Sequence record: OL615013
Direction: 5' to 3' (one strand)
DNA length: 64,000 bases
DNA from: Shigella phage ChubbyThor
The number at the start of each line of letters is the position of its first letter. Positions within the stretch are counted from its first letter, which is position 1. The translations under genes and the position numbers were made by a program. Below are positions 437 through 63,898 of this stretch, one piece after another. A model generated the notes under the pieces. The model did not search any database. It was not told where the DNA came from and was given only the letters and a program-made list of their open reading frames with translations.

Positions 437-443
437 TATTTAG
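437..443 (-). promoter_or_regulatory. CTAAATA late-promoter-like motif, inside a 9-bp hairpin, upstream of left-edge gene
   Basis: plus-strand tatttag at 437-443 within AAAGGGCAC...GTGCCCTTT (424-451). Confidence 0.35.
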
Positions 444-455
444 TGCCCTTTGGCC

Positions 456-734
456 TCATTCATAGATGAGGTGGTAGGATTCTTCGATGCACTCCAGCCA
501 GCCGTAGACGAACTGTAGAGGGTCATCCCAGTCACACGCCTTGCCGATCGTGAACTGACCGTCTAGACAATCCCCGCGCTCGTAGAAGTTCACGGTGCCA
601 TCAATCGTGATAACGTTTCCAGTCTGCATCACTGTTTTGACACCAACCGCAACCTTGTGGTGTTTATGTTTCGCATTCCAGGTATCAGCAGCAATCTGGC
701 CTGCCGAAAACAGTTCAACGTTGTCTTCTTTCAT
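456..734 (-). CDS. hypothetical protein (92 aa)
   Basis: ORF track; compact spacing with neighbours. Confidence 0.4.
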   Translation of the reverse strand: MKEDNVELFSAGQIAADTWNAKHKHHKVAVGVKTVMQTGNVITIDGTVNFYERGDCLDGQFTIGKACDWDDPLQFVYGWLECIEESYHLIYE

Positions 735-1044
735 ACGTTTGTCTCAGGTGTTCAGTAAAGGATTTACCCAGCTTGCGGAATAGTTTAATACGACCAATGA
801 CTTTGACGTAAACATCTCCGTGGCAGGGGCGTGGCTTACACCAGCACCCCAATACCTTCCCGTCAAGCTCAAGGAGTTCATCCTCGGTGATATCCCCTTC
901 AATCAGGCGCACATACAGGTCTTCTTCAAACAGTTCGATGCAGACGCCTCGTCCATGGTCTTTGACCTCGAACGGGTTCCCCCATTTACCAGGCCGACCA
1001 ATGTAGACGTCATATGGCTCCTTCTTGAAGTGGACGACTTTCAT
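715..1044 (-). CDS. DUF4326-like phage protein
   Basis: Start moved to internal ATG (MKVVHFKKEPYDVYIGRPGKWGNPF...GCWCKPRPCHGD), pattern recalled as DUF4326; ATGA overlap with upstream small ORF. Confidence 0.5.
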   Translation of the reverse strand: MKVVHFKKEPYDVYIGRPGKWGNPFEVKDHGRGVCIELFEEDLYVRLIEGDITEDELLELDGKVLGCWCKPRPCHGDVYVKVIGRIKLFRKLGKSFTEHLRQTYERRQR

Positions 1045-1214
1045 TTGAAGATCTCTACAGCGAACCCAATCGCGAAGTAGAGGGCGGCCACGCCGATAAG
1101 AGAGCAGCACACCATCTCCCTGACTTTGGACTCCCTGCTCATCTCGTATACCCCCAGTAACGCGTCAAAGAACATGAAGACACTAATGGCCAACAACAGA
1201 TGATCCCAGTTCAT
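1041..1214 (-). CDS. small hydrophobic membrane protein (57 aa, two predicted TM segments)
   Basis: Not in ORF track (short); ATG at 1212-1214 overlaps stop of 1211..1525 ORF (ATGA) and its own TGA overlaps ATG of DUF4326 gene; translation MNWDHLLLAISVFMFFDALLGVYEMSRESKVREMVCCSLIGVAALYFAIGFAVEIFK. Confidence 0.45.
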   Translation of the reverse strand: MNWDHLLLAISVFMFFDALLGVYEMSRESKVREMVCCSLIGVAALYFAIGFAVEIFK

Positions 1215-1525
1215 GACATATCCTCATGGTTAGACAGACTGATCAAGAAGGACAGATTCCGGTCATGTATGAGGTCAATGGCCTTGCGGCTGCCCACGGC
1301 ATCACATGTCCAACAACTGTAATTCCCCGCGATCTTCAATGCTAATCTGACGACATGGCGTCTCATATTGTACTGAGCCAACTGATATCGGGCACGTGTC
1401 TTCTTGCGCCAGCACTGATTCTCAGCAATGTATTTGTAGAGAATCATCAACCGGACGGCTTTGTACAGGCGCTTTTCAGCGCCCTTGGATTTCTTTGAAA
1501 CACGGATCAGACTACCCATGATCAA
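1211..1525 (-). CDS. hypothetical basic protein (104 aa)
   Basis: ORF track; start overlaps end of gp46 ORF. Confidence 0.4.
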   Translation of the reverse strand: MIMGSLIRVSKKSKGAEKRLYKAVRLMILYKYIAENQCWRKKTRARYQLAQYNMRRHVVRLALKIAGNYSCWTCDAVGSRKAIDLIHDRNLSFLISLSNHEDMS

Positions 1526-3858: not shown

Positions 3859-3859
3859 G

Positions 3860-4975
3860 TTATGCGTCCAGTTTGTTCAGGCGTTGTTGGGCAGCATTGT
3901 AGAAGTGCTCTGCCAGTTTACAGACGTTGTCAGGGCGCTGGATGTTGTTCCCGGCGCGGATATCCTTCTTCAGGACTTCCACTGCATCGGTTGCCACCAT
4001 CTCTTCGGTGACCTCAACCTTCTCAGCCGCCACGGTGATAGTCCGGTCGATGAAGTTGTAGTCAATGCACTTGCAGCGCTTCATGGCATCACAGAACTTT
4101 TCATAATGCTTAGCATTGTCGCGGTTCTGTACGATAACCTTAACGATCTGTCCTTCAATACCCAAGCCTGTGTTCAGCCATTCCGGGTCGATCCAGTTAC
4201 CCTCATCGTCTGAGGACAACTTGGTGTAGTCATACTCCACATAGCGGAACAACGTCTGGTGCTCGCTGTTGGGGATGAATACCTCGCCGCCGCGCATATC
4301 GTCTACATAGAAACCACGGTTGGTGCCGTCTTTGTAGTCTTCCCAGTTCAGGTGATACGGAGTCCCAATATATTGAATGTTACCTTCCATCGAACGGGTA
4401 TGGAAATGTCCCGTGTCGACCCTGGTAAACTTGGAAAGCAGAGCAACGTCGATCTGACCGTGATCACAAGTAGAAGACTGGTACATTTTGAACCCTGCCA
4501 GCTCCAGATGCGCAAAACAGTACTCGGCGTCTGTATCTTGTATCGCTTTAATAGACGCATCATAGTTCTCCTTGTTGATCCAAGGCAGCAGCAGAGTCTT
4601 GACACCCTCGATCATCACTTCGGTCGGTTCGCTGTAGTAGCAGTACACATCTGGGTCGAGTTCGTTCAGGTAGGATGGCCAGTTGATGCGGTTGGACTCT
4701 TCCAGGGTGATGTCGTGGTTGCCAACAATGCCATTCCACTTGATGTCAGCCGCTTTCAGCGCTGGAGTTAATTCATCCTTCAGCCAGTCTTTGTCGCGCC
4801 CGTACATGAATTTTCGGACGTCAAACGTGTCACCCAATTGCCAGACCTCATGGATGTCCGAGTCGACAAGCTCGGGGATGAAATAGTTGATGAGGTAGTT
4901 CTTGATGAAGTCGCGAACGTAACGGGAACCATTACGGCTCCCGATATGCAGATCGCCTATTTTAGCAATCGCCAT
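3860..4975 (-). CDS. 47: recombination endonuclease subunit, SbcD/Mre11-like nuclease (T4 gp47-like)
   Basis: Calcineurin-like phosphoesterase motifs GDLHIG, GDTFD, GNHD; directly downstream of gp46-like gene. Confidence 0.85.
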   Translation of the reverse strand: MAIAKIGDLHIGSRNGSRYVRDFIKNYLINYFIPELVDSDIHEVWQLGDTFDVRKFMYGRDKDWLKDELTPALKAADIKWNGIVGNHDITLEESNRINWPSYLNELDPDVYCYYSEPTEVMIEGVKTLLLPWINKENYDASIKAIQDTDAEYCFAHLELAGFKMYQSSTCDHGQIDVALLSKFTRVDTGHFHTRSMEGNIQYIGTPYHLNWEDYKDGTNRGFYVDDMRGGEVFIPNSEHQTLFRYVEYDYTKLSSDDEGNWIDPEWLNTGLGIEGQIVKVIVQNRDNAKHYEKFCDAMKRCKCIDYNFIDRTITVAAEKVEVTEEMVATDAVEVLKKDIRAGNNIQRPDNVCKLAEHFYNAAQQRLNKLDA

Positions 4976-5703
4976 TATTCTGTTTCTCCTTCGGTTTCGT
5001 CCAAATCGAATTGGGTTTTGCCAAAGTCCTGATCTGAATTGTCTTCGGCCTGCGCTGTTACCGTATTCTTAGCCTGCGCCATGTATTGAAGTATGCCTTT
5101 CGCAATCTTTTTATTCGATTCTGCGAGACGAGCCGCCTCCACCTTCTCTCGCTCCTTCTGCCTTTGAGCGTCCTTTTTGTTCTCAAAGTTACCGATACGT
5201 TCACGGAAGTCCATGCCAATCCCTGTCGCGTCAACAAAGATCTCTTGTTGGAAGTCGGGATCGTCTGCCAGGCCTGCGAACCCACCCGCCTCTTCAAATG
5301 AGCGCAATTTGATGTACGTGTGTTCTTCTTCGATGTTCAGTTTACGAGCAAATGAGCGATCCGCACACATGGTCACCCAAGAGAAGAAGTTGATCTTCCC
5401 TTTCTTTCCAATGTGGTCGACGTCAAAGGTGTGGAGGTAACGCAGGATGTTGACGATTGCTTCAGAGACCATGTCTTCACGGAAGGGATAGTCGCGATAG
5501 TTGTAGCGGGTGCTCATCTTGGTGATGATGCGCTGGACCTGTAGAGCAACATAGTTGGGGATCTTTGGAAGCCTGGTGCCTTCAGCCAGAGCCTTCTTAC
5601 GAGCAGGGATCCAATCACGAAGGATACTGATGACACGCTCGTTATCTTCGTCCGTGAAATATTTGACGACATTCTCGCCACGATCAACATAATTCATACC
5701 CAT
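4975..5703 (-). CDS. 55: late-transcription sigma factor (T4 gp55-like) with C-terminal extension
   Basis: Recalled similarity to T4 gp55 (ILRDWI, YNYRDYPFREDMVSEAIVNILRYLHTFD, FFSWVTMCADRSFARKLNIEEE); T4-like 47-55 synteny. Confidence 0.75.
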   Translation of the reverse strand: MGMNYVDRGENVVKYFTDEDNERVISILRDWIPARKKALAEGTRLPKIPNYVALQVQRIITKMSTRYNYRDYPFREDMVSEAIVNILRYLHTFDVDHIGKKGKINFFSWVTMCADRSFARKLNIEEEHTYIKLRSFEEAGGFAGLADDPDFQQEIFVDATGIGMDFRERIGNFENKKDAQRQKEREKVEAARLAESNKKIAKGILQYMAQAKNTVTAQAEDNSDQDFGKTQFDLDETEGETE

Positions 5704-6244: not shown

Positions 6245-6252
6245 TATAAATA
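6245..6252 (+). promoter_or_regulatory. exact T4-type late-promoter octamer TATAAATA, about 36 nt upstream of the plus-strand gene at 6288
   Basis: tataaata read directly at 6245-6252 in the divergent intergenic region. Confidence 0.3.
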
Positions 6253-6287: not shown

Positions 6288-7055
6288 ATGGCACCCCGCG
6301 CATATCGTTTCAGTCTCACCGCCCCGCAGATTGAGCAATTGCTCCTTTCTATCAATGATGCTATCAAGTCAGAAGATATCATCTATGATTATGCTGCAGG
6401 TGGGACTGTTGGGCAAGTCGCAGCAGCGTCTGCCGTCAAGAACATGTGGTTGAAGCTCAACGAGATGGTAACAGGCCAAGGCCTCAAAGATGCCATCAAC
6501 GCTGCAGAAGACAGCAACGTGTTCACCGACTATTATAAGTCTTTACTGGATCGCGAAGGCTGGAAATTTATTGGGTCTCCGGCAGATGAACTTGAGCGAG
6601 GCGACATCGACACCGCGAACTTCACGGGTGGTGAGGTCATTCTACTTCAGAAGAACGCTTCAGGCAACCCCGAATTCCAATACTGGAAGCGTACCCCGGT
6701 TGCTGGGGGTGATCCGACCTTCGCCTGGGCTTCGGTCTATGAAGGGAACTCCAACGACTCCAGCATCGAAATCCCGGTGATTGGCACCAGCGTCCTCAAA
6801 GACATTCCCAAGGCTCTCTTCCATATGGTGGAGTTCCGGGTTCATGTCTATGATGAAACGCTGGGGCACTGGCAAGATACAGATGGCAAGGTGGGGTATC
6901 GTGGCGAGGATCTGTTCTACAGCACGTATAACCATGTGCAGACCAAACCGCTCGCCACCATTGACTTCAGTCAAGACACAGATAGCATGACAGTCTCTGT
7001 GACTTCCCTGGAGCCGAATGTCAAATGCCATCTGTCGTTTATCGCTGGTTACTAA
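6288..7055 (+). CDS. hypothetical protein (255 aa), plus-strand gene
   Basis: ATG at 6288 with AGAGGA SD 8 nt upstream; divergent from RNase H gene; track ORF 6129..7055 trimmed to this ATG. Confidence 0.55.
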   Translation: MAPRAYRFSLTAPQIEQLLLSINDAIKSEDIIYDYAAGGTVGQVAAASAVKNMWLKLNEMVTGQGLKDAINAAEDSNVFTDYYKSLLDREGWKFIGSPADELERGDIDTANFTGGEVILLQKNASGNPEFQYWKRTPVAGGDPTFAWASVYEGNSNDSSIEIPVIGTSVLKDIPKALFHMVEFRVHVYDETLGHWQDTDGKVGYRGEDLFYSTYNHVQTKPLATIDFSQDTDSMTVSVTSLEPNVKCHLSFIAGY

Positions 7056-10238: not shown

Positions 10239-10295
10239 GATATAGTTCTCTCAAATGAAAGGGCGACCTTATGATAAGCCGCCCTGGATTATTGA

Positions 10296-11204
10296 TTATT
10301 GGAAATCGCCGACATACATGTTCAGCTTGTCATCCCAGTTCAGAACGATGCGGATCGTTCCGGAATCTTCAGGGAATGACAGCTTAGAGCACATGGCGCG
10401 ATTGACATAAGTCCCGCTCTGGTTGACGTTGTAGTCCTTGCCTTGCATAATACCGAAGCGCTTGAAGTCGCGAGTGACCATCATGTTCAACGTGGTCCAC
10501 GGAATGATGTCACGCAAGGCTTTACACAGGATGATCTTGCCATCCGACCTGAACGACACAAACAGCTCGTTGGCGATACGACGGCGAGCAGGCGGCTCGA
10601 GTTCGCGCAGGGAGATAAATTCAGAGGGATCGTCCAATGCACCCAGGGTGATCATGTCTTCGCGAACTTTATTGACAATTTCAGTTACTGCTGACACGAC
10701 TTCAACTGCCGGATTCGTCTTAAATGGCTCAACAGTCGTGGACATCTTGGATACAGACATCCCGTTGCCGTTGCGCTTCTCTGCATATTGCTCGACGGAC
10801 TTGTCGCTCACCGGAGGCAGTTTGGTGGCAGGAGTTATGACCGGGCTTGCATCTGGTTTCGCCTTTGGGGTACTCCGAGCCGCACGCAGCTTTTCCTGGG
10901 CTTCCAGAATGCGCTCTTGACGAGAAAGTGGAGCCTTTGGGGTGATCTTCGTACTGAAATCTGAAACGCCGACCCAATCACCCTGGTCATTACGCTTGGC
11001 GACCAGAGTCAGTTTGTGGATGATGCCCTGAAGTTTGCTCTCACGCAAGTTGTCGGCATACCAGAACTTCGCGCCCATCTCGAACTTCTCGGCGAAGATC
11101 ACGCGAGCGTCTTCGTGTACCAACATAACTTTGGCTGTGTTGGGGGCAAAAGCCTTATTCTTTTCGATAATCGCCGCAGCGATTGATTTGGTCAGGAGCA
11201 TCAC
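10296..11204 (-). CDS. hypothetical protein (302 aa) with Pro/Lys-rich linker
   Basis: ORF track; long ORF, no recognised motif. Confidence 0.5.
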   Translation of the reverse strand: MMLLTKSIAAAIIEKNKAFAPNTAKVMLVHEDARVIFAEKFEMGAKFWYADNLRESKLQGIIHKLTLVAKRNDQGDWVGVSDFSTKITPKAPLSRQERILEAQEKLRAARSTPKAKPDASPVITPATKLPPVSDKSVEQYAEKRNGNGMSVSKMSTTVEPFKTNPAVEVVSAVTEIVNKVREDMITLGALDDPSEFISLRELEPPARRRIANELFVSFRSDGKIILCKALRDIIPWTTLNMMVTRDFKRFGIMQGKDYNVNQSGTYVNRAMCSKLSFPEDSGTIRIVLNWDDKLNMYVGDFQ

Positions 11205-12338: not shown

Positions 12339-13169
12339 TCATTGGAATTCAACTCCATACCTTTCAAGCCATTTATCACAAGTTAAAGGATCCCAACCAT
12401 TATCTAACCTTCGAATAATCGGATTCACTTTAGCCCAGATCCCAGAAGAATTGGAACCGAATACTTCTTTAATGGCTTCTCCCTTGGTCTTACCTTTCAA
12501 TATATGGTAATGTATGTGGGCTGCCCAACACCACCAATTATCCCTATCCGGAGTCCATCTTGGCTTCTCCCAAGGCATTTGCTCTCTGGAGGTTCTGGTA
12601 AAAGCCTCAACACGTTTCCTTTCTTGGTCCGATGTCAATTTATTGGTTAGGCTCTTTCCATAACAGTGATGGTGCTCTCCTCTCTTGACACCTGCATTTC
12701 TCTTCGCAAAGAATTGTTTCAGTTCAGGGTCTTCCTTGCGCTTGTCTTCATAGAATTTCAGCAGTGAATCTGAAGTTGCATCTTTGGCTGCCTGAGACTT
12801 CTTTTTACCATACATCGGGTTGTTAGCCCCTCTGTTCTCTTCGGACAATCTCGCGGCGTATTTCTTACGCATTTTGGCGAAGAGATGTGAATTAACTCTG
12901 TGGCCATTCCTTCTCAGGATCATCAGCGCCTTTACCATACACGTATCCGGCAGCGCCAGAGCGAGACACACGTGAGCAATATAGTGGACGCGGTGTGGTA
13001 ATTTGATTAAATTGTTCTTATCTTTCTTGAATTGAGGAAATAGGGCGGCTGGAAGGATGTGGTGAAATTCTCCTTCCCCGTTGTAATCTGAATAGGCTGA
13101 AAGCAATTTCACATATTTGCCTACAAAGTGCGGTTTGCCACCTATTGTTAAAAGATATTCTCTTTTCAT
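12339..13169 (-). CDS. HNH-type homing endonuclease-like protein
   Basis: N-terminal EFHHILP...NNLIKLPHRVHYIAH (HNH pattern); NPMYGKK DNA-binding repeat like those in the GIY-YIG endonuclease at 32793. Confidence 0.6.
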   Translation of the reverse strand: MKREYLLTIGGKPHFVGKYVKLLSAYSDYNGEGEFHHILPAALFPQFKKDKNNLIKLPHRVHYIAHVCLALALPDTCMVKALMILRRNGHRVNSHLFAKMRKKYAARLSEENRGANNPMYGKKKSQAAKDATSDSLLKFYEDKRKEDPELKQFFAKRNAGVKRGEHHHCYGKSLTNKLTSDQERKRVEAFTRTSREQMPWEKPRWTPDRDNWWCWAAHIHYHILKGKTKGEAIKEVFGSNSSGIWAKVNPIIRRLDNGWDPLTCDKWLERYGVEFQ

Positions 13170-15005: not shown

Positions 15006-15023
15006 CGGGGTAATCATACCCCG
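15006..15023 (-). terminator. GC-rich hairpin (repeat copy 2), terminator-like
   Basis: CGGGGTA / TACCCCG stem, loop ATCA; near-identical to 14447..14466. Confidence 0.45.
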
Positions 15024-15038
15024 CCCAAAGTTATAGAA

Positions 15039-43227: not shown

Positions 43228-43395
43228 TTATTCGTCTTGCGCAGGAGACATGTCTTGACTCAGAGAGTTCATGACATATGCGGTGCCCTGTTGAACGAGT
43301 TCCTGGGCGCGAGCAGACAGTTCAGTTTGACATTCAGCAACAGCAGCATCGGTGTCACCAGCGATGATTGCTTTTACCAGATCGATAGCGGCCAT
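43228..43395 (-). CDS. 67: prohead core protein (T4 gp67-like)
   Basis: Small protein between portal and gp68; track start is GTG, moved to ATG at 43393-43395 with AGAGGA SD. Confidence 0.5.
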   Translation of the reverse strand: MAAIDLVKAIIAGDTDAAVAECQTELSARAQELVQQGTAYVMNSLSQDMSPAQDE

Positions 43396-43432
43396 GTTCA
43401 TATCCTCTAAATGTTTTCTATACTTAGTCGAA

Positions 43433-45148: not shown

Positions 45149-45155
45149 TAATTAG
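45149..45155 (-). promoter_or_regulatory. CTAATTA variant motif upstream of gp20
   Basis: minus-sense CACTAATTACAAG about 25 nt upstream of ATG 45124. Confidence 0.3.
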
Positions 45156-48475: not shown

Positions 48476-48482
48476 TATTTAG
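48476..48482 (-). promoter_or_regulatory. CTAAATA late-promoter-like motif upstream of gp18
   Basis: minus-sense CACTAAATAACTTTCAAATTGAG about 43 nt upstream of ATG 48433. Confidence 0.4.
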
Positions 48483-52078: not shown

Positions 52079-52729
52079 TTATTCTCCAAAGTCGATCTTC
52101 ATCTTGTCCACTGCAAGCCCCTTCTCAAGCACATCCGCCAAAGCATTGTCGGTCTGCAGAGAAGAATCCTTGTACACGTCCGGTTCGTTCTCTTCGTCCA
52201 AGATGGACAGACGTTTGTCGATATCGTCGATCTCCGGAACGCCTGTATCGAAGTTTTCGTTGCCGTACTGGAACAACGTGCACGGCAGAGAGAACGTATA
52301 CCATTTGCCAAATTGCATGAAGTCTTCATCGTTGTTCGGGTTGTTGACCTTGAAGATCTTGTTCGCCAGGGGCAGGTAGATCAGGTCACCTTCCTGAGGT
52401 TGTTGTTCAATCCCAACACCGTTGCCTATCACCTCAGCAAAGCGGCGGCGCGAGATAGAGAACGTCACCTCATCCTGTAGATTAATACCCCCGAACTTCT
52501 CCCACATCTGGGTGTTGAAGCCCTGGTAATCCTGCATGTAAACTTCGATGTCGAACGCTTGGTCGAATCGATGGTTTGCATCGTTGGTGACTGGGAATTT
52601 TTCAACGATGGAACGTGGTATATACTTGACGTCTATCCCACGCAACTGAATCATTTCTTGCACCAAATCTTCAATCAGCTTCTGTGTGCCTTGGTGATTG
52701 GTGGCGTTGAAATATTTTGAAGTGGCCAT
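52079..52729 (-). CDS. 14: neck protein (T4 gp14-like)
   Basis: Position between gp13 and gp15; assignment by synteny only. Confidence 0.55.
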   Translation of the reverse strand: MATSKYFNATNHQGTQKLIEDLVQEMIQLRGIDVKYIPRSIVEKFPVTNDANHRFDQAFDIEVYMQDYQGFNTQMWEKFGGINLQDEVTFSISRRRFAEVIGNGVGIEQQPQEGDLIYLPLANKIFKVNNPNNDEDFMQFGKWYTFSLPCTLFQYGNENFDTGVPEIDDIDKRLSILDEENEPDVYKDSSLQTDNALADVLEKGLAVDKMKIDFGE

Positions 52730-52752
52730 ATCGATACCCTCAATTTTGAAGG

Positions 52753-52759
52753 TATTTAG
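52753..52759 (-). promoter_or_regulatory. CTAAATA late-promoter-like motif upstream of gp14
   Basis: minus-sense CGACTAAATACC about 24 nt upstream of ATG 52729. Confidence 0.4.
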
Positions 52760-54391: not shown

Positions 54392-57300
54392 TTATGCCAG
54401 AGCAATCAAACGGAAATCTTTGAATGATGGCGGCGCTGTACGGTTGCCTCTCACCAGCAGGCGGATCTTCAGGCCAACGAAAGGATTGGTGCTGTCCACA
54501 GTCTTGTCATATTCGTATTCAAAGAATGTAGAACCATCGTTGACCAGAGGGGATGTTGGAGTCACGGTTTCCCATGCGACATCATCCATCTCCTGACCAG
54601 CGCGGAGCAGTTTCACCTGTACAGTCATTGAAGACTGAGAAGGCAGCATCGCACCGAAGTATTGCTTCAGGGTGGTGCAAGGGTTATCGAAGCCGATATC
54701 CTTGGTCACATAACTGAACACGTCTTCAAACGGATCCACCCCGTAGGTGTTGAAGATGACAGTGAAATCATCTCCATCGATCATCGGAGCCGTGTACACG
54801 TTGCTTTCGTTACGCGTCATTGTCGCCCGCACCTGGAAGTCACCCACTTGGCGATAGATGCCTTCCGTCGGCAGAGACACGTCCGTATCGGATTCGAACT
54901 CAGCCCAATCAGAGAATGAGTTGGAGGTCGCATCGCGGTAACGGTATTCCAGTTTCAATACAGATCCTTCCAGGGCTGAATTGGTGACGCTTGCGTAGAA
55001 CATGTCTACCAAGTAGTTGCCCAGGAAAGAAGCCTCTTCACCACCAATCTGCCCGTCGGAGTCGGCGTTGGAACTCAGAACAAATTTGAACGTCGTGAAC
55101 GTCGCGTCTGTCACAGTGTGTTGGGCGTTCAGTTGCTCAGGAGTGAAACCACAACCACCCGTCAGACCAGACAGGGTAACACTTTCACCCGCAGTCAGGC
55201 CATGCCCCGGCGCGTACACTGTAACAGTTGAAGAACCGTTGACACATTTCACGGTGTTCAGACCCAGAGGGCGGATCTTCGGACCGACTTTAGCATCGAA
55301 GGTCACGATGTTTGAACCAGCGGAGAAGTTACAGCGATACACACGGAACTTCATATCGGCAGTCTGGTTTGGAGTCCAAGTCGTGCCGTTGGAAGACGTG
55401 AAGAACACGCCAGTGTACGGCTGCTTGGCGATGTACTCGTTGGTCAGCAAGTTCTTTTTGCCCATCTCTGCGATGTATGCGTTGTAGTCCTGAGTGTTGG
55501 CCAGGAGCACGATCGCGAACTCAGTCTGCGCCTGCAGATACACAGGATAATCAAACTTGAACATCGTTGGTACAGAAGAGTCTGTGGAGACGGAAACTTC
55601 TGATGGGTTCAAAGTCTTACGAGTGACCACAGTCGTCGCAGGCAGGCCATTACTCATCTCACGGATTTCCAGAGTAATCGGGATATCACGGGACTTGGTG
55701 GAGAAGAAGACTTCAATCCCTTCGATGTACTCACCACCAATATTGGTAGCAACCATGAAGGATTGAGCAATCGGGTCTTTCCACTTCGCAACTTCAACCG
55801 TCTCCGTTTTGTTTTCGGTGGACTTGGTCGCAGTGTAACCCAGGACGCGAGTGTTGACATAGGTCTTTTGAATGCCCTGTTTCTTACCGAAGGATTTGTG
55901 AACCGCTTCAGCATTGGTCAGGGTATCATCAGCAGACTTGCTGTCCACAGGGCTGTCAGTCAGACGGAAGACGTTGTCGCCCGTGTTGAACTTAACAGTC
56001 TCGTTCTGAGGCACTGCGAACACGCCTTTGATATTACCGTTGGCATCAGTGTTCAGCGCGCCACCCAGTACGCCACCACTTGGAGTACAGTACGCGCTCA
56101 CATCACGCCCTGAGAAGAACGGATATACACGAGTGAACGGACGCAGGCCTGTGGCTTCGAAGTTGATGTTCGTTTTGCGCATGTATGGAATAACCTGCGT
56201 TTCAACGATCTGCTCGCCAGTCAGGGTAGTCGTCGTCTTGTCGGTGTACGTGTACGTGGTGACGTCACGGGTAGACACAGTCGTGCGGTAGCGGTAGCCC
56301 CACCATACGCCGCCTGCGCCATGTGGTTCCCACACACGCTCAGACACAGACACAGTACGCCATGTGCCATACACAGAACCTTCTTTGATCGCGCCGCGTG
56401 TGTTGATCGTTTCGTTGATCACACGTGGAGCAACATAGTAGTTCTCGAACCAGTAGTCGGTGGTCGGGTTCAGCTTCAGGAAACCTTCCCAGTTGAATAC
56501 CGCATATGGGTTCACGTTGATGGTCGTGGTCGCATAATCCTGGCGCACAGAGATCTCACGGGTGTAGTTGCATACAACCATGCCATCCTGAACGTTGTTC
56601 CAGCCTACTGGCGTCAGGTCAACCGCATTCTGCTGAACGAACGGGCGTAGGCGACCATTGTCAGTATCGATTGAACCTACCCAGTCAGCAGACAAATCGT
56701 CGATCAGACGGAAGTCTTTGAACGGGTCGGCAGCGATACCGTTTTTGAAGCGCGGGTTGCCAGTGATCGGGTCGAACACCTGCTGAGTCATAGCTGAAGA
56801 TTCCAGCTGTGACAGTGAGGTGTAGTATTCAACATTGGAGATACGGGTCTCCAGTTTACCGATATCACGCATCGTGTAACGACGGTTGTCGATGGTACGA
56901 ATCTGAATATCGTCGATGTTGGCCGTGTAAGGCGGGATCATCAGTTCGTACAGACGCATGCCGTTGTCTGGGATCGCAGGCGAAGCCAGGTTGTTGGAAC
57001 TCACACCACGCGCCACATTGAACACGCCGTTGTCGGCCAGATACACAGCATCAATACGAGGCAGGTAGTACTCCGCATCGAGGACGATAGCAGTGTTCGG
57101 GCGAACCATATCAGTGTCGGAAGCGCCGCTGGTGATCTTAGGACGGAAGTCCAGGCAGTCTGCCAGGCCATACACAGTACCAGAACTGGACGAAACATAG
57201 TTCGGAATGTCTGGGTAATCGATGGAAGAATAGGAATCCGCTGTGAAGAAATCACCAGAGCTGTGAGCGAAATACTGATACACCACCGTGAACGTCCCTG

Positions 57301-59230
57301 AAATGGCTCCAGTGCCCGATAACAGGTTAGAACGATAGTATGCAGCATCACGCTGGCCGCCGTCCAGAGTGAAGTTAGAGGTGACGTCAGCGCCACTTGC
57401 ATTCTTCACGCTGACCAGCTTGTAGCCGTCGTGGTTGTTCAGCTGTACGCTGGCCGCCGAAGTGAACGTCACAGTCTCGGTGACTTCGGTAACAGTCTTG
57501 GTCTTGATCGTCGCTGTGGTGCGGACCATCAGTGCCAACAGGTTGATAGACTGGTTGGCGTACCCCGCACCCAGGGAAATCTGCAGTGCTGAACCGACCG
57601 GAGTACCAGTCAGGGACAGTCCCGAAGAGATATCAAACTGAGCTGCAGTGCCGTCTGCCTTCGCCGCTGAGTACAAAGAGAATTCAGGGCTGAAGCTGTA
57701 ACCCAGAGGAGCAGAGATAGAGCCTGCGCCTGCCGCGTTCAACGTGATCTTGTTTGACCGCAGGACGGTGTAGTTGATGTCGATGGTCCCCGTAGGAGCC
57801 AGCGTCTTCACACCAAATACAGGCAGAGGGAAGATCAGGTCAATTGCTGAACTCTGGCTGAACTGATTAGACTCCAGTTCGCAAGAGAACATTGTTGTAC
57901 CGCTTTCTTCGTATGCAACTTTGGTGACAGTACCCATGTCCCCAGTGACAACGAGGTCGCGCATATACAGACGGAATTCCGCTCCAGAACGTTCTGCTGA
58001 AATCAGGAGGGCAGTGGCCTGGACAGCGCTGGATGCGTTCAGGAACTTGTAACGGATTGTGCGAGAGACAACCGGAACCCCTTTGGAGTTCTTGGACACC
58101 AGATAGTTGCCAGTCGCAACAGCCACAGGGTTGTTGTTCAGGGTATCGGTGTCACGGGCTTTATCAATAGTGACCAGCTCTTCGCCGAGGTTTTCGATAC
58201 GACGGCCACGAACGTAGGAGATCCCTGGCTTCATGACCGCCACGAATTTGCTTGCGTCACCACCTTCGGCAGGAGTATAAACGCCACCGTTGTTGTTCTG
58301 TTTCAGATGTTCACGCAGGTCGATCTGATGAGTGGAGACGTTGTAATCCCCGTTGGTCTCATAAGTGCGCTGCGCCATACTGTCTTCGAGGATGTTGTAG
58401 GTGGACTGGGTCACCATGGACTGAATGCGCCCATCTTTGACTTTCGCCAGCTCTACGAAGTCCGCCACTTCTTCATCATAACCGAAGCGTGACAACACCA
58501 GGTCCACGCGGAAACGGTGCGCGCCAGGGGCTTTGGAGTTTGGCGTTCCCTGAGCATTGGAGAATAGGCTTTCATCTTCTACTTCAGTGACGATGGTCTC
58601 TGTTACTTTGAAGCCCACCCGGTGTGAAGTAGAGTTGGAAGCGTTGTCGACGATCAGAGTTGCTGGCTCAACGTCCAGGAACATACCGCGGACGAAGTAA
58701 ACGCCTTTGGTCATACGAGCAACGATAGAGCCACCCACAGTCGCAGCAATACCATAACCGATACGAATGAAGTTATCGTTCACATCGTAGGTGTTGAAGT
58801 ACAGGTTGTCGCCGACGCCAAAGCCGTCAGATGAACCACTTTCAGTCATCTCGAGGATAGCGTACATCGTATCCGGTTCTGAAACATAGCGCTCCAGGGA
58901 CAGCACACGCGCCTTGGCGTTGTTGTCTTTGCCCAGGACGTACAGTTCTGCAATGTTCTCCAGGTCGGTGAACTCGGTGCCGCCAGCCAGAGTGAATTTC
59001 ATAGACACGGCTGTATTGGTGATTGTCAGGCCACCGGGGATAACCATCGAACCGTCTTTGAACAGATGGTTCCCGAGTTTCTCCAGCTGATCCTGGAAGA
59101 TGGTCTGCATCTGGTTCAGTTCACGGGTCTGAACTTTGATAGGAGCCGGACGAAACAGGATGCGTGAAAAACGCTTCTCTGGATTCCAATCATCCCAGTA
59201 TGGGCGGCGGTTGAGGTTCATTTCTTGCAT
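54392..59230 (-). CDS. very large virion structural protein (about 1612 aa), likely tail/baseplate or fibre component
   Basis: Single long ORF in late block; start moved to ATG at 59228-59230 (MQEMNLNRRPYWDD...); Thr/Ser/Asn/Gly-rich beta-type composition. Confidence 0.6.
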   Translation of the reverse strand: MQEMNLNRRPYWDDWNPEKRFSRILFRPAPIKVQTRELNQMQTIFQDQLEKLGNHLFKDGSMVIPGGLTITNTAVSMKFTLAGGTEFTDLENIAELYVLGKDNNAKARVLSLERYVSEPDTMYAILEMTESGSSDGFGVGDNLYFNTYDVNDNFIRIGYGIAATVGGSIVARMTKGVYFVRGMFLDVEPATLIVDNASNSTSHRVGFKVTETIVTEVEDESLFSNAQGTPNSKAPGAHRFRVDLVLSRFGYDEEVADFVELAKVKDGRIQSMVTQSTYNILEDSMAQRTYETNGDYNVSTHQIDLREHLKQNNNGGVYTPAEGGDASKFVAVMKPGISYVRGRRIENLGEELVTIDKARDTDTLNNNPVAVATGNYLVSKNSKGVPVVSRTIRYKFLNASSAVQATALLISAERSGAEFRLYMRDLVVTGDMGTVTKVAYEESGTTMFSCELESNQFSQSSAIDLIFPLPVFGVKTLAPTGTIDINYTVLRSNKITLNAAGAGSISAPLGYSFSPEFSLYSAAKADGTAAQFDISSGLSLTGTPVGSALQISLGAGYANQSINLLALMVRTTATIKTKTVTEVTETVTFTSAASVQLNNHDGYKLVSVKNASGADVTSNFTLDGGQRDAAYYRSNLLSGTGAISGTFTVVYQYFAHSSGDFFTADSYSSIDYPDIPNYVSSSSGTVYGLADCLDFRPKITSGASDTDMVRPNTAIVLDAEYYLPRIDAVYLADNGVFNVARGVSSNNLASPAIPDNGMRLYELMIPPYTANIDDIQIRTIDNRRYTMRDIGKLETRISNVEYYTSLSQLESSAMTQQVFDPITGNPRFKNGIAADPFKDFRLIDDLSADWVGSIDTDNGRLRPFVQQNAVDLTPVGWNNVQDGMVVCNYTREISVRQDYATTTINVNPYAVFNWEGFLKLNPTTDYWFENYYVAPRVINETINTRGAIKEGSVYGTWRTVSVSERVWEPHGAGGVWWGYRYRTTVSTRDVTTYTYTDKTTTTLTGEQIVETQVIPYMRKTNINFEATGLRPFTRVYPFFSGRDVSAYCTPSGGVLGGALNTDANGNIKGVFAVPQNETVKFNTGDNVFRLTDSPVDSKSADDTLTNAEAVHKSFGKKQGIQKTYVNTRVLGYTATKSTENKTETVEVAKWKDPIAQSFMVATNIGGEYIEGIEVFFSTKSRDIPITLEIREMSNGLPATTVVTRKTLNPSEVSVSTDSSVPTMFKFDYPVYLQAQTEFAIVLLANTQDYNAYIAEMGKKNLLTNEYIAKQPYTGVFFTSSNGTTWTPNQTADMKFRVYRCNFSAGSNIVTFDAKVGPKIRPLGLNTVKCVNGSSTVTVYAPGHGLTAGESVTLSGLTGGCGFTPEQLNAQHTVTDATFTTFKFVLSSNADSDGQIGGEEASFLGNYLVDMFYASVTNSALEGSVLKLEYRYRDATSNSFSDWAEFESDTDVSLPTEGIYRQVGDFQVRATMTRNESNVYTAPMIDGDDFTVIFNTYGVDPFEDVFSYVTKDIGFDNPCTTLKQYFGAMLPSQSSMTVQVKLLRAGQEMDDVAWETVTPTSPLVNDGSTFFEYEYDKTVDSTNPFVGLKIRLLVRGNRTAPPSFKDFRLIALA

Positions 59231-59264
59231 TTTGATGCTCCATCGATAGGTGCCATTATAGAGA

Positions 59265-59271
59265 TATTTAG
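59265..59271 (-). promoter_or_regulatory. CTAAATA late-promoter-like motif upstream of the large structural gene
   Basis: minus-sense TACTAAATATC about 35 nt upstream of ATG 59230. Confidence 0.4.
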
Positions 59272-59300
59272 TATACAGCCAACCGAGGAATAGAAAGAAA

Positions 59301-59322
59301 AAGCCCCTCATCTGAGGGGCTT
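59301..59322 (-). terminator. intrinsic terminator after tailspike-like gene
   Basis: AAGCCCCTCA / TGAGGGGCTT inverted repeat; minus-strand RNA continues UUUCUUUCUAUU. Confidence 0.65.
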
Positions 59323-59328
59323 TGTCTA

Positions 59329-61113: not shown

Positions 61114-61143
61114 GTGAATCTCCTGTTGTTATTCTCAATGGAA

Positions 61144-61161
61144 AAGCCCCCGAAGGGGCTT
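61144..61161 (-). terminator. terminator hairpin between the two tailspike-like genes
   Basis: AAGCCCC / GGGGCTT stem with CGAA tetraloop. Confidence 0.5.
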
Positions 61162-61164
61162 AGC

Positions 61165-63870
61165 TTAGTTAACGGAATCGAGAGAAGAAATCAATTTCAA
61201 ATTGATCTGTACCTGAGACTCCGCAGTTACAGCAGGAATAGCCAGACCACCAGCATTAAGCCCAAAATTCGCAATAAAGCCAGTAGTTGAAGATCTCACT
61301 ACGTCAAATCCTGTACCGCCTGAGCCGGTGCTTGCAAATTGAGTCTGCTTAGCACCGAAAGCATCACCCGTACCAGCTATTGCTACTTGCCAAATACCAC
61401 GGAATAACGTAGCCGCAATATTAGCTGCCGCAGCGCCAGCAGCACGAGTGATCTTCATGTTGTCGTAGAACCAGACTTCCTGAATTGTAGCAATGTTACG
61501 AGCACCGAAACTAACAACTTGGTTCCCTTCAAAGCTGTAGTTAGTTCGGTTATCAACAACAAAATCACATAACATACAGGTCTGGGTAGACACATTAAGA
61601 TCTAAGGTATTTCCATGTGCAATGAGTGACTTAGGAATACCTTGTACGCGGAAACCCGCAGAACGGTATGTAAGATTCAACGTATTTAATTGCTTGATAC
61701 TGTTAGCCATCAGTTTCACACGTTGACCTCGGTATACCATAGTGTTAGCTGCACCTGCGTTAACAATAATACCTTCGGCATTGTTATTAAGCGTATCGCA
61801 CTTCAGCACTACAGTATTATGGCTAATATCAATATCCTGGAACACAGCATAAGTTGCATCCCCTGCTCCGGTACTGATTGCAACACCATCAAAAGCTCGG
61901 AGTTCGCAATAGTTATTATTGATTTTAACAAAAGGATCTGGGTAAGTAGCCTGGGTTGCTTCACCCCCACCACCAACATCAATGCTCCTTGTATACTTGC
62001 CTCCAATTAACAAACCAGTAGTAAAACTGGCAGGTATGTTACGAGAACGCACATAGTTATTGGAAATGATTAAGTTATAAGGTTCATAGTTCGGTGCCCA
62101 ACCCGACCCACATTTAGCATAAATACCTACAACACCATGTTCTAAACACTGGTTATTGGTAATGATCGCCTGACCGCCACCGTGGAAGTCAATACACTTA
62201 CGGCGACAGTTACGAATCATGTTTTCACTGATGGTTACATTACGAATGCGGCGGTTACGTCCATGCGTGATTCCGTAACCAGGATCGTAACTGGCATTCA
62301 GGGTATCATCACCATTCGGGTGACCAATATCTTCAATGTTATTTCCCAGATAAACTAAGCGATAACCAGACAACACATAAATTCCTGCACTGTAACAGTT
62401 ACGAATGTAACACTTGCTTACCATCACACCATCTGGAACATCAGATTCTGTGGTGTAGTCGGCGCTACCGTAAGCTACGGCTGCATTACGGATACCAATA
62501 CCTACAGCACCATAGTTAAAGCCTGTGATGCGGCAACGATTGATTAAAATGCCACGACAAGCACGCTGAACTTTAATACCACAAGCCCAGCTACCGATGT
62601 AACCATTTAAGAACTCACCCCATTTGTTCTGCCAACCTGCTGCTTGGGATCCATCAGCATTATAATTAGGGAATTGTCCTTGAGTACCGTCATAAGCACC
62701 ACTGGTATAGTTGCTGGTATCAAGCCCATTATTAGGTGCAAGTACCATAGCGCTGTCATACCCGAAACGCTCTTCGCCTTTTTCAGCATAACCAGTAGTA
62801 ACATCGATAGCAGGAAATACACCTGGCCCCTGAATTGCTAACTCTACAGTCACGTTTTCACAAGCAATAAGCGCAAGTGCATCCATACCGTGAGTTTTTA
62901 CAATTAAAGTACCGTTGTAAATTTTGATGTTCTTCTTGCCTACTAAAGCCAAGCAAGGACTAAAGTTGTGAGTACCGTCAGAAAAATCAGGTTCAGATGG
63001 ATATTTAGTAGCCAAGTCTGGATTTTTACTGATCAGGTACGTACCACCATAGAGATTAATATCTCCAGTGGATGCATCAAAATAATTTTGAAGCGCTTTA
63101 GTATCATCAGCCTGACCATCAGCTTTTGCTTTAAAATCTTTAGGGCTTAAGTTCTCATTGCCTTTATCCTGGATAGTACGTGCTACCGTATCCGCACCAG
63201 GGGCTTTGTAGCCAACTAAAGATGAACCTGTAGATTTGGCTAAATCTGCACGAAGGGTGTCATCTACGCTTTCTAAAGCCTCATTAATAGTGTTAAGTTC
63301 TTCCTGTACCGTGTTACCGGAAGTTGTACCAATCAGACTTGCGCCTCCATCGGAAGAGAGCGCCAGGTAATTCTGTTTGATGGACATCTCAGCCACAACC
63401 CAAACACCAGCAGCCGGAGATCCATTCAGGAACGACACCACACCAGTCGTTCTGTTGTAGGTGTAATCAACCCCAGGAACCTGGAACTTCCCGTCAATGT
63501 GCAGAGATTGTACACCATATGTCGTGAAGTCTGGGGTGAATGAGGTCTCGCTGCCAACTGCCTGGAACTTGTAGATGCGAATCCCGTTTTCATAATCTTC
63601 TGGTGACAGGATCTTGTCAAATAGGCAGTAAACGACGTCATCTGCTTCAAGAGATCGACCGAGGTTGACTGTGTTCCCATCGATTTCATAGTTGTCAACA
63701 GGAACCTGGACGCCGCCGTTGATGGTGATGAATCCCGTAACAGGATAGAACGGGAGGGAGATAAACGTCTCTCCACCCGTTGCTGTGTAAGTGTATGGAA
63801 TCTGGTGCGGGGCTGTTACAACCGCTCCAAAGATGCTCTCGACGTTTCTGGTCATTTGAAGATACCCCAT
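61165..63870 (-). CDS. tailspike-like protein with right-handed beta-helix region (putative depolymerase)
   Basis: PbH1-like repeats (IRNCYSAGIYV, ISENMIRNCRRKCIDFHGGGQAIITNNQCLEHGVVGIY, IISNNYVRSRN); 901 aa. Confidence 0.6.
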   Translation of the reverse strand: MGYLQMTRNVESIFGAVVTAPHQIPYTYTATGGETFISLPFYPVTGFITINGGVQVPVDNYEIDGNTVNLGRSLEADDVVYCLFDKILSPEDYENGIRIYKFQAVGSETSFTPDFTTYGVQSLHIDGKFQVPGVDYTYNRTTGVVSFLNGSPAAGVWVVAEMSIKQNYLALSSDGGASLIGTTSGNTVQEELNTINEALESVDDTLRADLAKSTGSSLVGYKAPGADTVARTIQDKGNENLSPKDFKAKADGQADDTKALQNYFDASTGDINLYGGTYLISKNPDLATKYPSEPDFSDGTHNFSPCLALVGKKNIKIYNGTLIVKTHGMDALALIACENVTVELAIQGPGVFPAIDVTTGYAEKGEERFGYDSAMVLAPNNGLDTSNYTSGAYDGTQGQFPNYNADGSQAAGWQNKWGEFLNGYIGSWACGIKVQRACRGILINRCRITGFNYGAVGIGIRNAAVAYGSADYTTESDVPDGVMVSKCYIRNCYSAGIYVLSGYRLVYLGNNIEDIGHPNGDDTLNASYDPGYGITHGRNRRIRNVTISENMIRNCRRKCIDFHGGGQAIITNNQCLEHGVVGIYAKCGSGWAPNYEPYNLIISNNYVRSRNIPASFTTGLLIGGKYTRSIDVGGGGEATQATYPDPFVKINNNYCELRAFDGVAISTGAGDATYAVFQDIDISHNTVVLKCDTLNNNAEGIIVNAGAANTMVYRGQRVKLMANSIKQLNTLNLTYRSAGFRVQGIPKSLIAHGNTLDLNVSTQTCMLCDFVVDNRTNYSFEGNQVVSFGARNIATIQEVWFYDNMKITRAAGAAAANIAATLFRGIWQVAIAGTGDAFGAKQTQFASTGSGGTGFDVVRSSTTGFIANFGLNAGGLAIPAVTAESQVQINLKLISSLDSVN

Positions 63871-63891
63871 AGAGGATTTGCCAATATGGGG

Positions 63892-63898
63892 TATTTAG
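63892..63898 (-). promoter_or_regulatory. CTAAATA late-promoter-like motif upstream of tailspike-like gene
   Basis: minus-sense CACTAAATACCCCATATT about 22 nt upstream of ATG 63870. Confidence 0.4.

Follow-up and report, generated by a model that had tools for sequence, protein, structure and literature searches.

The ViI-like phages, formerly the genus 'Viunalikevirus', now form the family Ackermannviridae, and their motif CTAAATAcCcc reportedly originates from Adriaenssens et al. 2012 (Arch Virol). The EspM4VN genome paper cites the regulatory motif 'CTAAATAcCcc' for ViI-like phages (PMC7283392), which bears out the motif named in the first-pass annotation of the present DNA. Sites orthologous to those described below are annotated as putative late promoters in the 2012 GenBank record of LIMEstone1. 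Since the motif has been known for this phage family since 2012, finding it here is correct but ordinary: sequence, phage family and genomic positions are the same, with no substantive difference.

In T4, the late promoter TATAAATA at −13 to −6 is read by gp55 with gp33 and gp45, and gp55 takes up the flipped bases −12 and −8 in pockets. The T4 genes e, soc, 49 and I-TevI carry hairpins that hide the ribosome-binding site and whose 5′ arm encodes a late promoter, as reviewed by Uzan and Miller (2010, PMC3014915). For Aeromonas phage Aeh1, a described T4-like phage from a different group than the Ackermannviridae, Nolan et al. (2006, PMC1524935) reported a late promoter CTAAATA starting at −12, which they connected with a divergent gp55. 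The same 7-mer is found here, in both cases by motif search 5′ of late-gene orthologues.

The window, i.e. the whole stretch of 64,000 nucleotides analysed, is 96–98% identical to Shigella phages Ag3 and MK-13 and Salmonella phage SKML-39 and is assigned by sequence to an Agtrevirus-like phage of the Ackermannviridae. Its gene map was anchored on the annotations of Ag3 and MK-13, which leaves an intergenic share of 5.5%.

CTAAATA and related sites in the window

CTAAATA has ten matches in the window, every one on the minus strand, which is the gene strand:

63892–63898, minus strand: CTAAATA(cccc), candidate late promoter of the tailspike gene (61165–63855), 36 nt to ATG
59265–59271, minus strand: CTAAATA, candidate late promoter of the large structural gene (54392–59230), 34 nt to ATG
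52753–52759, minus strand: CTAAATA, candidate late promoter of gp14 (52079–52729), 23 nt to ATG
48476–48482, minus strand: CTAAATA, candidate late promoter of gp18, tail sheath (46538–48433), 42 nt to ATG
42218–42224, minus strand: CTAAATA, candidate late promoter of gp22, scaffold (41333–42190), 27 nt to ATG
35938–35944, minus strand: CTAAATA(ccccc), candidate late promoter of a virion structural gene (35182–35910), 27 nt to ATG
32044–32050, minus strand: CTAAATA(cccc), candidate late promoter of uvsW (30510–32018), 25 nt to ATG
437–443, minus strand: CTAAATA in a terminator-like hairpin loop, 80 nt from the ATG of the left-edge gene (start 356)
42574–42580, minus strand: intragenic CTAAATA in gp21, present in Ag3 and LIMEstone1, absent from Vi01, May and Serratia
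63002–63008, minus strand: intragenic CTAAATA in the tailspike gene

Shuffled versions of the window contain 3.35 ± 1.75 matches, with a maximum of 9. Eight of the ten sites lie within or overlap intergenic DNA (binomial P = 3.5e-9), and seven of these eight are 23–42 nt 5′ of late-gene starts. In an unbiased scan of all 7-mers in the 60 nt 5′ of start codons CTAAATA ranks top, and its density there is about 68-fold that in coding sequence. The enrichment expected by the first-pass annotation is thus present, and coding and upstream frequencies are far from equal. Its count of eight start-proximal minus-strand sites at 22–45 nt holds for seven of them; the left-edge site is too distant. The description of these sites as usually CACTAAATACC was overstated, since this exact 11-mer occurs at just two of the eight. 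CA precedes CTAAATA at four of the eight sites and CC follows at five, and the window holds three copies of the full 11-mer CTAAATAcCcc. The CTAAGTA, CTAATTA and single TATAAATA sites named in the same annotation were recovered among the following variants:

41282–41288, minus strand: CTAAGTA, 40 nt upstream of gp23, major capsid gene (start 41241)
43421–43427, minus strand: CTAAGTA, 25 nt upstream of a small ORF (43228–43395)
45149–45155, minus strand: CTAATTA, 24 nt upstream of gp20, portal gene (start 45124)
45756–45762, minus strand: CTAATTA, 31 nt upstream of gp19, tail tube gene (start 45724)
27638–27644, minus strand: CTAAGTA, 30 nt upstream of regA (start 27607), sharing bases with the gp62 stop codon
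36145–36151, minus strand: ATAAATA, 28 nt upstream of a small ORF (35949–36116)
6245–6252, plus strand: the only exact TATAAATA, 35 nt upstream of a plus-strand gene (6288–7055)

The last site is a plausible late promoter for the opposite strand. At gp23 there is a second near-match, CTGAATA, at 41263–41269. At the left edge, hairpin arms AAAGGGCAC...GTGCCCTTT are followed by a T-run and enclose the motif, which is shared with MK-13; as a promoter this site is ambiguous. The intragenic copies in gp21 and the tailspike gene are probably due to chance. The atypical distance of the site at 437–443 and the intragenic position of two exact sites speak against a late-promoter reading, as does the fact that regA and uvsW are not virion genes; in T4, uvsW is late-expressed.

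Conservation and strand in related phages

Six relatives from five genera were compared (Ag3, LIMEstone1, Vi01, Klebsiella phage May, Serratia phage 2050H1 and Vibrio phage VP-1); since orthologous sites share descent, counts across these phages are not independent. CTAAATA is invariant or nearly so in the seven phages at gp22, uvsW, gp18, gp14, the large structural gene and the tailspike genes, while the flanks diverge. The gp22 site CTAAATACT is unchanged in all seven, gp18 has TC[A/G]CTAAATA in 7/7, gp14 has CTAA[A/G]TA, and the 7-mers of uvsW and the large structural gene are invariant; LIMEstone1 annotates the gp14 site as a late promoter and likewise those of gp18, gp22 and uvsW. At uvsW the TAA doubles as stop codon of the upstream exonuclease gene. 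The tailspike promoter cassette is also found 5′ of tailspike genes in Ag3, LIMEstone1, Vi01 and May. For the gene at 35182–35910, whose LIMEstone1 orthologue (ORF129) is a confirmed structural protein, TAAATA is kept in six phages with C, T or A as 5′ base.

Several variants are exact in other genera. The gp23 CTAAGTA and the gp20 CTAATTA are each kept in five phages, with exact CTAAATA in Serratia and Vibrio. The gp19 CTAATTA, located within the 3′ end of an inserted ORF, is kept in five and exact in Serratia; the site of the ORF at 43228–43395 is exact in Vi01, May, Serratia and Vibrio. LIMEstone1 also lists a late promoter at the site orthologous to ATAAATA at 36145–36151 (ORF130).

Across about 47 kb in Vi01 and Klebsiella May, CTAAATA is found nowhere but 23–42 nt 5′ of late-gene orthologues (8 of 8). 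In Ag3 the motif switches strand along with the gene, including plus-strand sites before plus-strand genes. The 50-kb early region of Ag3 contains one CTAAATA only, on the plus strand and 34 nt 5′ of the plus-strand baseplate gene gp48, and each of the five copies at 126–158 kb is on the strand of the downstream gene. The 5′ base departs in Ag3 at gp4 and gp2 (TTAAATA), gp5 (ATAAATA) and gp54 (TATAAATA), and the divergent site pairs gp4/gp48 and gp2/gp54 serve both strands.

Putative promoter architecture, the presumed reader and competing explanations

A position matrix from 55 unique sites contains C in 52/55, followed by T, A, A, a position with A (43), T (7) or G (5), and T, A. Neither a conserved position 5′ of the preceding A nor a −35-like element is seen in the 55 sites. 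At the position equal to +1 in the T4 register, A is found in 38/55, an unforced enrichment. The two positions that directly follow the motif hold C more often than any other base (24/55 and 21/55). The consensus from these sequences reads a-C-T-A-A-[A>T,G]-T-A, with the core (C>T/A)TAA(A>T/G)TA; TAAATA, common to T4, appears as the invariant core, and the 5′ C as preferred rather than obligatory. Several sites lie just 3′ of terminator-like hairpins, e.g. that of gp23 (hairpin 41302–41319) and that of the large structural gene (strong hairpin 59300–59323).

Two proteins of the window are relevant for reading such sites:

4975–5703, minus strand: gp55-family late sigma factor, 242 aa, presumed motif reader
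29133–29801, minus strand: gp45 sliding clamp homologue, 100% identical to the Ag3 protein annotated gp45

The sigma factor matches PHROG 234 (E = 3.6e-52), as does T4 gp55, and hhalign against T4 gp55 gave a probability of 87% (E = 3.8e-6); its MK-13 annotation is 'late sigma transcription factor'. No Pfam or PDB match was obtained, and similarity to T4 gp55 (185 aa, against 242 aa here) is undetectable by pairwise BLASTP. Its late-sigma role is therefore suggested by homology at the profile level, the sequence being very diverged. The alignment retains N13, R57, F86 and T99 and has acidic residues at both clamp-helix contacts, E70 and D74. Tyr97 of T4 gp55, which stacks at −12, aligns with an invariant Trp (W109) and His95 with Phe (F107). 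The Pfam gp45-slide_C match to the clamp is weak (18.8 bits, under the cut-off); gp33 is annotated in Ag3.

We consider the CTAAATA-type sites to be very probably the late promoters of this phage, read by its own gp55-family sigma. They would be single −10-like elements without a −35, to which host RNA polymerase would bind with the phage sigma for expression late in infection. With the T4 register, C would occupy −12 and the start of transcription would fall some 6 nt past the last A. By analogy to T4, the gp33 co-activator and the gp45 clamp would activate the polymerase, and the gp45 route would couple late transcription to DNA replication. For Ackermannviridae, the searchable literature yielded no mapped transcript 5′ ends, no in vitro transcription and no genetic work on gp55. 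The shifted late-promoter consensus and the gp55-like sigma proposed in the first-pass annotation are both supported: all computational tests suggested there favour the shifted consensus, and enrichment, strand, conservation, matrix and sigma family agree.

The A+T content of intergenic DNA (59%, against 50% in the whole window) and the overlap with a stop codon at two sites would fit a chance accumulation of the 7-mer from AT-rich spacers and TAA stops. However, an intergenic first-order Markov background predicts 0.52 CTAAATA where 8 are seen, and 0 of 2000 simulations reach 8. The reverse complement has 0 occurrences in the intergenic DNA of the window, CTAAATA ranks first among 105 permutations of the same composition, and its position is kept in five genera. 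A composition artefact is refuted by these Markov and permutation statistics together with the positional conservation, and its probability is practically negligible. Host sigma-70 or middle-type promoters with a −10 resembling TAAATA are very improbable. TAAATA does match TATAAT at 3/6 positions and one site coincides with a sigma-70-like TTGGCT-16-TATAAT (59255–59282), but sigma-70-type matches occur at background (21 against 21.2 expected; 15 against 15.7), and the matrix lacks a conserved −35 and ends in A where the critical T is required. Moreover, a distinct sigma-70-like motif, TTCAAT-N14-TATAAT, is located before the early clusters of the family (17 against 4.1 expected), and the literature reports neither MotA nor AsiA for Ackermannviridae.

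Slightly less improbable, yet still hardly likely, is an RNA-level leader element of the late mRNA (a processing site or translational operator) instead of a DNA promoter. In its favour, the motif never leaves the sense strand, its distance to starts spans a rather small range, and the window encodes RegA, a translational repressor. On the other hand, the spacing to ATG varies between 23 and 42 nt, while the A enrichment is fixed 6 nt downstream, and several sites come after terminators, where a new promoter is needed. The core is the experimentally defined −10 of T4 late promoters and the full motif that of Aeh1, the divergent pairs of Ag3 serve both strands, and the phage encodes the gp55 machinery. 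Late promoters thus remain the preferred reading.

Predicted leader hairpins and the cCcc tail

The cCcc tail is limited to a subset of sites, where it is predicted to pair with the downstream ribosome-binding site:

63862–63894, minus strand: predicted tailspike hairpin ATACCCCATA / TATGGGGTAT
52735–52754, minus strand: predicted gp14 hairpin TACCTTCA / TGAGGGTA, promoter-proximal box with the gp14 ribosome-binding site
35914–35942, minus strand: predicted 12-bp hairpin AAATACCCCCAT / ATGGGGGTATTT, followed by a T-run
32022–32048, minus strand: weaker predicted uvsW helix CCCA/TGGG plus AAAT/ATTT, promoter box against ribosome-binding site

In the tailspike leader the G-rich ribosome-binding site is the predicted partner of CCCC and of the promoter's last bases; 7.8 pairs are expected here and 1.2 in shuffled leaders. 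This hairpin is present in 7/10 tailspike cassettes, one of them re-paired; in the paralogous cassette LIME_160 both arms are changed together. The hairpin at 35914–35942 overlaps promoter and ribosome-binding site, is present in 6/6 phages and is a terminator feature in the LIMEstone1 and May annotations. Gene starts mapped from the relatives' annotation are 63855 and 35910; the longest-ORF starts, 63870 and 35925, fall in the hairpins. The gp14 hairpin is found in 5/7 phages, with another inner stem in Vibrio VP-1, and the uvsW helix (5.8–7.3 expected pairs, 5/7 phages) is marginal against shuffles. Since the 5′ arm extends from the motif end to the predicted +1, a transcript begun at the late promoter would lack it.

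Alternatively, cCcc after CTAAATA could be a discriminator-like element recognised by sigma or polymerase and not an RNA hairpin arm. It is part of the published consensus CTAAATAcCcc (cited in PMC7283392), and C leads at the two post-motif positions of the matrix. We regard this as possible but rather doubtful, as cCcc is missing at the conserved gp18, gp22, large structural gene, gp23, gp20 and gp19 sites, a complementary GGGG(T) ribosome-binding site is present wherever cCcc occurs, and LIME_160 alters both arms together.

As in T4 e and soc, the Shine-Dalgarno region is predicted to be paired with the bases between motif end and predicted +1 in the leaders of the tailspike, gp14, Felix-like structural and uvsW genes. 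In contrast to the lysis or accessory gene of T4, the window has a conserved cassette on several virion genes, and unlike in e and soc the hairpin at one site also resembles an intrinsic terminator.

Like T4 late promoters, the sites described here have a TAAATA core, do without a −35 and precede virion genes, and homologues of gp55, gp33 and gp45 are shared as well. The sites differ from T4 at −12 (C instead of A), at −13 (no T) and at −8, where A, G and T are tolerated. Beyond the published consensus, the present analysis defines the degenerate core and restricts cCcc to a subset of genes. Two small additions result: the positions differing from T4, −12 and −8, are the bases that T4 gp55 flips into its pockets, and the predicted pairing of the cCcc subset with the ribosome-binding site resembles the T4 genes e and soc.

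Recurrence of CTAAATA upstream of late genes

The first-pass annotation had described a CTAAATA motif that recurs upstream of late genes in place of the T4 late promoter TATAAATA. This recurrence is real. CTAAATA is found 10 times in the window, always on the minus strand, compared to 3.35 expected matches, and TATAAATA has, as had been reported, a single match; this one is on the plus strand. Enrichment outside genes was also checked: eight of the ten copies are wholly or partly intergenic, and intergenic DNA accounts for 5.5% of the window (P=3.5e-9), while 0.52 copies are predicted when the background is modelled on the intergenic DNA. With this background CTAAATA heads the ranking of all 105 arrangements of its seven letters, and its reverse complement has no occurrence in the intergenic DNA of the window. 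An unbiased scan of the 60 nt upstream of start codons returned CTAAATA as the top enriched 7-mer. The two intragenic copies look like chance occurrences.

The window has a G+C content of 50% and carries nearly all genes on the minus strand. By megablast it is placed in the Ackermannviridae, subfamily Aglimvirinae, with 96-98% identity to the Shigella phages Ag3 and MK-13 and to Salmonella phage SKML-39, about 90% to the Dickeya Limestonevirus phages, and at most 77% to the genera Kuttervirus (ViI), Taipeivirus and Miltonvirus. A replication and nucleotide-metabolism cluster is followed by gp45/44/62/regA with uvsW/uvsY and then by head, neck, tail and tailspike genes. Start codons were taken from the coding annotations of Ag3 and MK-13, transferred by tblastn, since a greedy ORF map with SD-scored starts truncated several genes and was dropped. 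The longest-ORF starts at 63870 and 35925 were rejected; both lie within hairpins, and the annotation of relatives gives 63855 and 35910. These in-frame ATGs (63868-63870 and 35923-35925), inside promoter-proximal hairpins, lengthen the longest ORFs by 5 codons, and automatic gene callers may choose them over the conserved starts.

Of eight proposed start-proximal sites, seven hold. They are located 23-42 nt from the ATG of uvsW, the virion structural gene at 35182-35910, gp22, gp18, gp14, the large structural gene (54392-59230) and a tailspike gene (61165-63855). The eighth, at the left edge, is 80 nt away from its gene; it falls within the loop of a terminator-like hairpin, and its role as a promoter is ambiguous. 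CTAAGTA upstream of gp23 and regA and CTAATTA upstream of gp20 and gp19 were found where they had been placed. The 11-mer CACTAAATACC, described as the usual form, occurs exactly at two sites only. In two places a stop codon overlaps the element: the exonuclease gene just before uvsW ends with the TAA of CTAAATA (32047-32049), and gp62 just before regA ends with the TAG within CTAAGTAG (27637-27639).

Four ORFs (38340-39812, 45745-46452, 32793-33542 and 12339-13169) are missing from Ag3 and/or MK-13 at the respective positions and sit where relatives have homing endonucleases, such as F-LimVII of LIMEstone1 between the small-ORF cluster and gp23. CTAGATA is present 20 nt upstream of ORF 38340-39812.

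ACTATAT/CTATATC, the second enriched family of upstream k-mers, was considered as a second promoter and rejected, as it is a conserved spacer between SD and ATG. Its enrichment is due to a translation-initiation cassette, TTTGAA-(N)-AGGA/AGAGA-aCTATATC-ATG on the minus strand, directly upstream of the starts at 38036, 37247, 14979, 14420 and 10238. The five small genes concerned are probably early genes. A related form is present at gp45 (29817-29822). The other published motif of the family, the sigma-70-like TTCAAT-N14-TATAAT, has 17 matches with up to 2 mismatches, compared to 4.1 expected. Matches precede early-gene clusters, often in the form TTCAATAA...TATTAT, at the following positions:

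38306-38331, minus strand, TTCAAT-N14-TATAAT-type element
24906-24931, minus strand, TTCAAT-N14-TATAAT-type element
29108-29133, minus strand, TTCAAT-N14-TATAAT-type element
10271-10296, minus strand, TTCAAT-N14-TATAAT-type element
15013-15038, minus strand, TTCAAT-N14-TATAAT-type element

A further sigma-70-like arrangement, TTGGCT-16-TATAAT at 59255-59282 (minus strand), overlaps the candidate late promoter of the large structural gene. CTAAATA is closely followed by the TATAAT of this match, which shows partial conservation in Vi01.

Conservation of the motif and the gp55-family sigma factor

Upstream regions of orthologous genes were aligned from the window, Ag3, LIMEstone1, Vi01, Klebsiella phage May, Serratia phage 2050H1 and Vibrio phage VP-1. 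In these alignments the flanks drift, while CTAAATA shows little or no variation upstream of gp22, uvsW, gp18, gp14, the large structural gene and a set of ten tailspike genes. The variants CTAAGTA and CTAATTA of the window (gp23, gp20, gp19 and a small ORF) are exact CTAAATA in the Serratia phage and, with the exception of gp19, also in the Vibrio phage. In Vi01 and May all eight copies within about 47 kb are 23-42 nt upstream of late-gene orthologues. The motif also follows gene orientation, since the Ag3 sites share the strand of the downstream gene. In a census of about 142 of the 158 kb of Ag3 (0-50 and 66-158 kb), the only CTAAATA of the 50-kb early region is found 34 nt before the baseplate gene gp48, with motif and gene both on the plus strand, and the five copies at 126-158 kb, three of them on the plus strand, all match the strand of the gene they precede, gp6 among them.

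Other late genes of Ag3 have TTAAATA (gp4, gp2), ATAAATA (gp5) or the canonical TATAAATA (gp54), arranged as divergent pairs. The pairs gp4/gp48 and gp2/gp54 share short intergenic regions (19013-19062 and 41534-41586), in which two facing TAAATA form a near-palindrome, e.g. CCTAAATAG...CTATTTAAGG, and either promoter sits within the leader of the opposite gene.

A matrix of 55 unique sites reads a, C (52/55), T, A, A, [A 43, T 7, G 5], T, A. The regular expression used for collection fixed positions 2-4 and 6-7 of the heptamer and limited position 5 to A, T or G; the C, the A before it and the downstream A were free. Six bases past the motif an unforced A is present in 38 of the 55 sites. In the T4 register, with the late promoter at -13 to -6, the C would be at -12 and this A-rich position at the predicted +1. 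The six 3' bases TAAATA are common to T4 and the window and invariant except for -8 (A/T/G), whereas the two 5' bases are aC here and TA in T4.

In T4, gp55 reads the late promoter, and the gp45 clamp and gp33 activate. The window indeed encodes a gp55-like sigma factor, as the first-pass annotation had stated: the 242-aa product of 4975-5703 (minus strand) is a full-length profile match to PHROG 234, 'late sigma transcription factor' (E=3.6e-52), a family that T4 gp55 also matches (2.9e-69). A profile of 20 homologues aligns to T4 gp55 with a probability of 87% (hhalign, E=3.8e-6, T4 numbering). The link to gp55 comes from PHROGs and profile alignment and not from single-sequence searches: BLASTP detected no pairwise similarity to T4 gp55, no match was found in Pfam or PDB, and NCBIfam gave one sub-threshold match to the sigma-70 superfamily. 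The gp45 clamp is encoded at 29133-29801 and is identical to the Ag3 protein annotated as gp45; the gp33 co-activator is annotated in Ag3, outside the window. The gp55/gp33/gp45 set of a T4-type late system is thus present in this phage type (gp33 per Ag3).

Cryo-EM of the T4 open complex is reported to show promoter bases flipped into pockets of gp55: A(-12) enters a deep one and stacks on Y97, A(-9) is received by one that N13 and H95 form, and for A(-8) the pocket includes T99. According to the profile alignment, N13, R57, F86 and T99 correspond to N21, R66, F93 and T111 in the window sigma factor, and the RNA-polymerase contacts E70 and D74 are still acidic. In contrast, Y97 is replaced by an invariant Trp (W109) and H95 by Phe (F107). 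Since T4 gp55 flips -12 and -8, both positions at which the motif differs from T4 (C at -12, relaxed -8) are positions of flipped bases. As judged from sequence, the changed residue of the -12 pocket and the changed promoter bases would fit a shifted specificity. The sigma factor ends with an acidic tail (...GKTQFDLDETEGETE), possibly a clamp-binding motif such as that borne by the C-terminus of T4 gp55 (...SLDFLYEAND).

The CTAAATA sites are most likely the late promoters of this phage. The proposed shift of the late-promoter consensus is supported by enrichment, by conservation across genera, by the way the motif follows the gene strand and by the gp55-family sigma factor. Host sigma-70 promoters would be expected to have a TTGACA-like -35 element, a spacer of 16-18 nt and a TATAAT-like -10 element ending in T. 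The sites do not have this form. Upstream of the base before C the 55 sites show no conservation and no -35 element, an invariant A rather than T ends the motif, and the late region has no excess of sigma-70-type matches. T4-type late promoters likewise lack a conserved -35 element and precede genes for virion or late functions. Both hold here: the motif precedes gp14, gp18, gp22, gp23, gp20, gp19, tailspike genes, the large structural gene and a gene whose product is a confirmed virion structural protein in LIMEstone1. Several candidate late promoters directly follow terminator-like hairpins, so that re-initiation would be required there.

The cCcc tail and a predicted hairpin at the ribosome-binding site

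The full CTAAATAcCcc occurs as CTAAATACCCC in three exact copies on the gene strand of the window. At four of the seven well-placed exact sites (tailspike gene, gp14, 35182-35910 and uvsW) the stretch from the motif end to the predicted +1 (...ATACCCC) is complementary to the downstream G-rich ribosome-binding site. Base-pair probabilities give 7-9 expected pairs at these sites compared to 1.2-3.6 in shuffled leaders. Among control pseudo-sites upstream of 43 other genes, 2.8% reach 7 expected pairs, and the seven exact sites differ from these controls with P=0.0014 (Mann-Whitney). The predicted hairpin recurs across genera in three gene families: in six of six phages at the structural gene, in seven of ten tailspike cassettes, one of which has both arms altered together, and in five of seven phages at gp14. 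No such hairpin is present at gp18, gp23, gp20, gp19 or the large structural gene. The alignments hold one double-change pair each, and the arms are nearly invariant and possibly constrained independently. Since covariation is too sparse, the predicted structures are those of thermodynamic and shuffle tests only.

The arrangement has a precedent in T4 (Uzan and Miller 2010, PMC3014915): in the longer transcripts of e, soc, 49 and I-TevI, which are made earlier, a helix masks the ribosome-binding site, and the DNA for the 5' strand of this helix contains the late promoter. Leaders of this type, with pairing of the Shine-Dalgarno sequence and/or AUG, are predicted here at the four sites. We tentatively propose, with rather less than even confidence, that the cCcc tail is not read by sigma and is instead the 5' arm of a conserved hairpin, with the late promoter inside this arm, as a family-wide cassette. 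In a subset of late genes (tailspikes, gp14, virion protein, uvsW) the arm would pair with the G-rich ribosome-binding site, and at one site the same hairpin would double as a terminator. If the T4 spacing applies, the late transcript would begin inside the helix and would thus be devoid of the 5' arm. Because the late promoter lies within the arm, only transcripts initiated there would expose the ribosome-binding site, while read-through transcripts would hide it. Alternatively, and with only slightly lower probability, CCCC may be an element contacted by the polymerase. Pairing with the ribosome-binding site would account for the presence, in the published consensus (PMC7283392), of a cCcc tail that is missing from many conserved sites.

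Precedents and implications

The published motifs of the family reportedly originate from the 2012 proposal of the genus Viunalikevirus. [quoted passage not shown] The 2012 LIMEstone1 paper gives 33 late promoters; its GenBank record marks TAAATA hexamers, nearly all after C, at sites orthologous to those of the window. For Aeromonas phage Aeh1, the same CTAAATA, beginning at -12, was found as late promoter and tied to a divergent gp55 (Nolan et al. 2006, PMC1524935). Searches of the literature returned no study that maps the starts of late transcripts in Ackermannviridae by experiment.

Hence, the CTAAATA late motif is correct, but it is already known as a bioinformatic motif for this family and annotated in a sister genome. 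Its value as a discovery is small. For annotation it marks late transcription units, and it helped to fix two start codons; it also suggests that records of the Ag3 type, searched with the T4 sequence, under-annotate late promoters. Two hypotheses for experiment result: that the two positions differing from T4, -12 and -8, are those whose bases T4 gp55 flips, with Trp aligned in place of the Tyr that stacks on -12, and that a subset of promoters is embedded in hairpins that would hide the ribosome-binding site on read-through transcripts. If the latter is true, the logic of T4 e and soc would be extended to a family-wide cassette of promoter plus ribosome-binding site, which may also move with the exchangeable tailspike genes.
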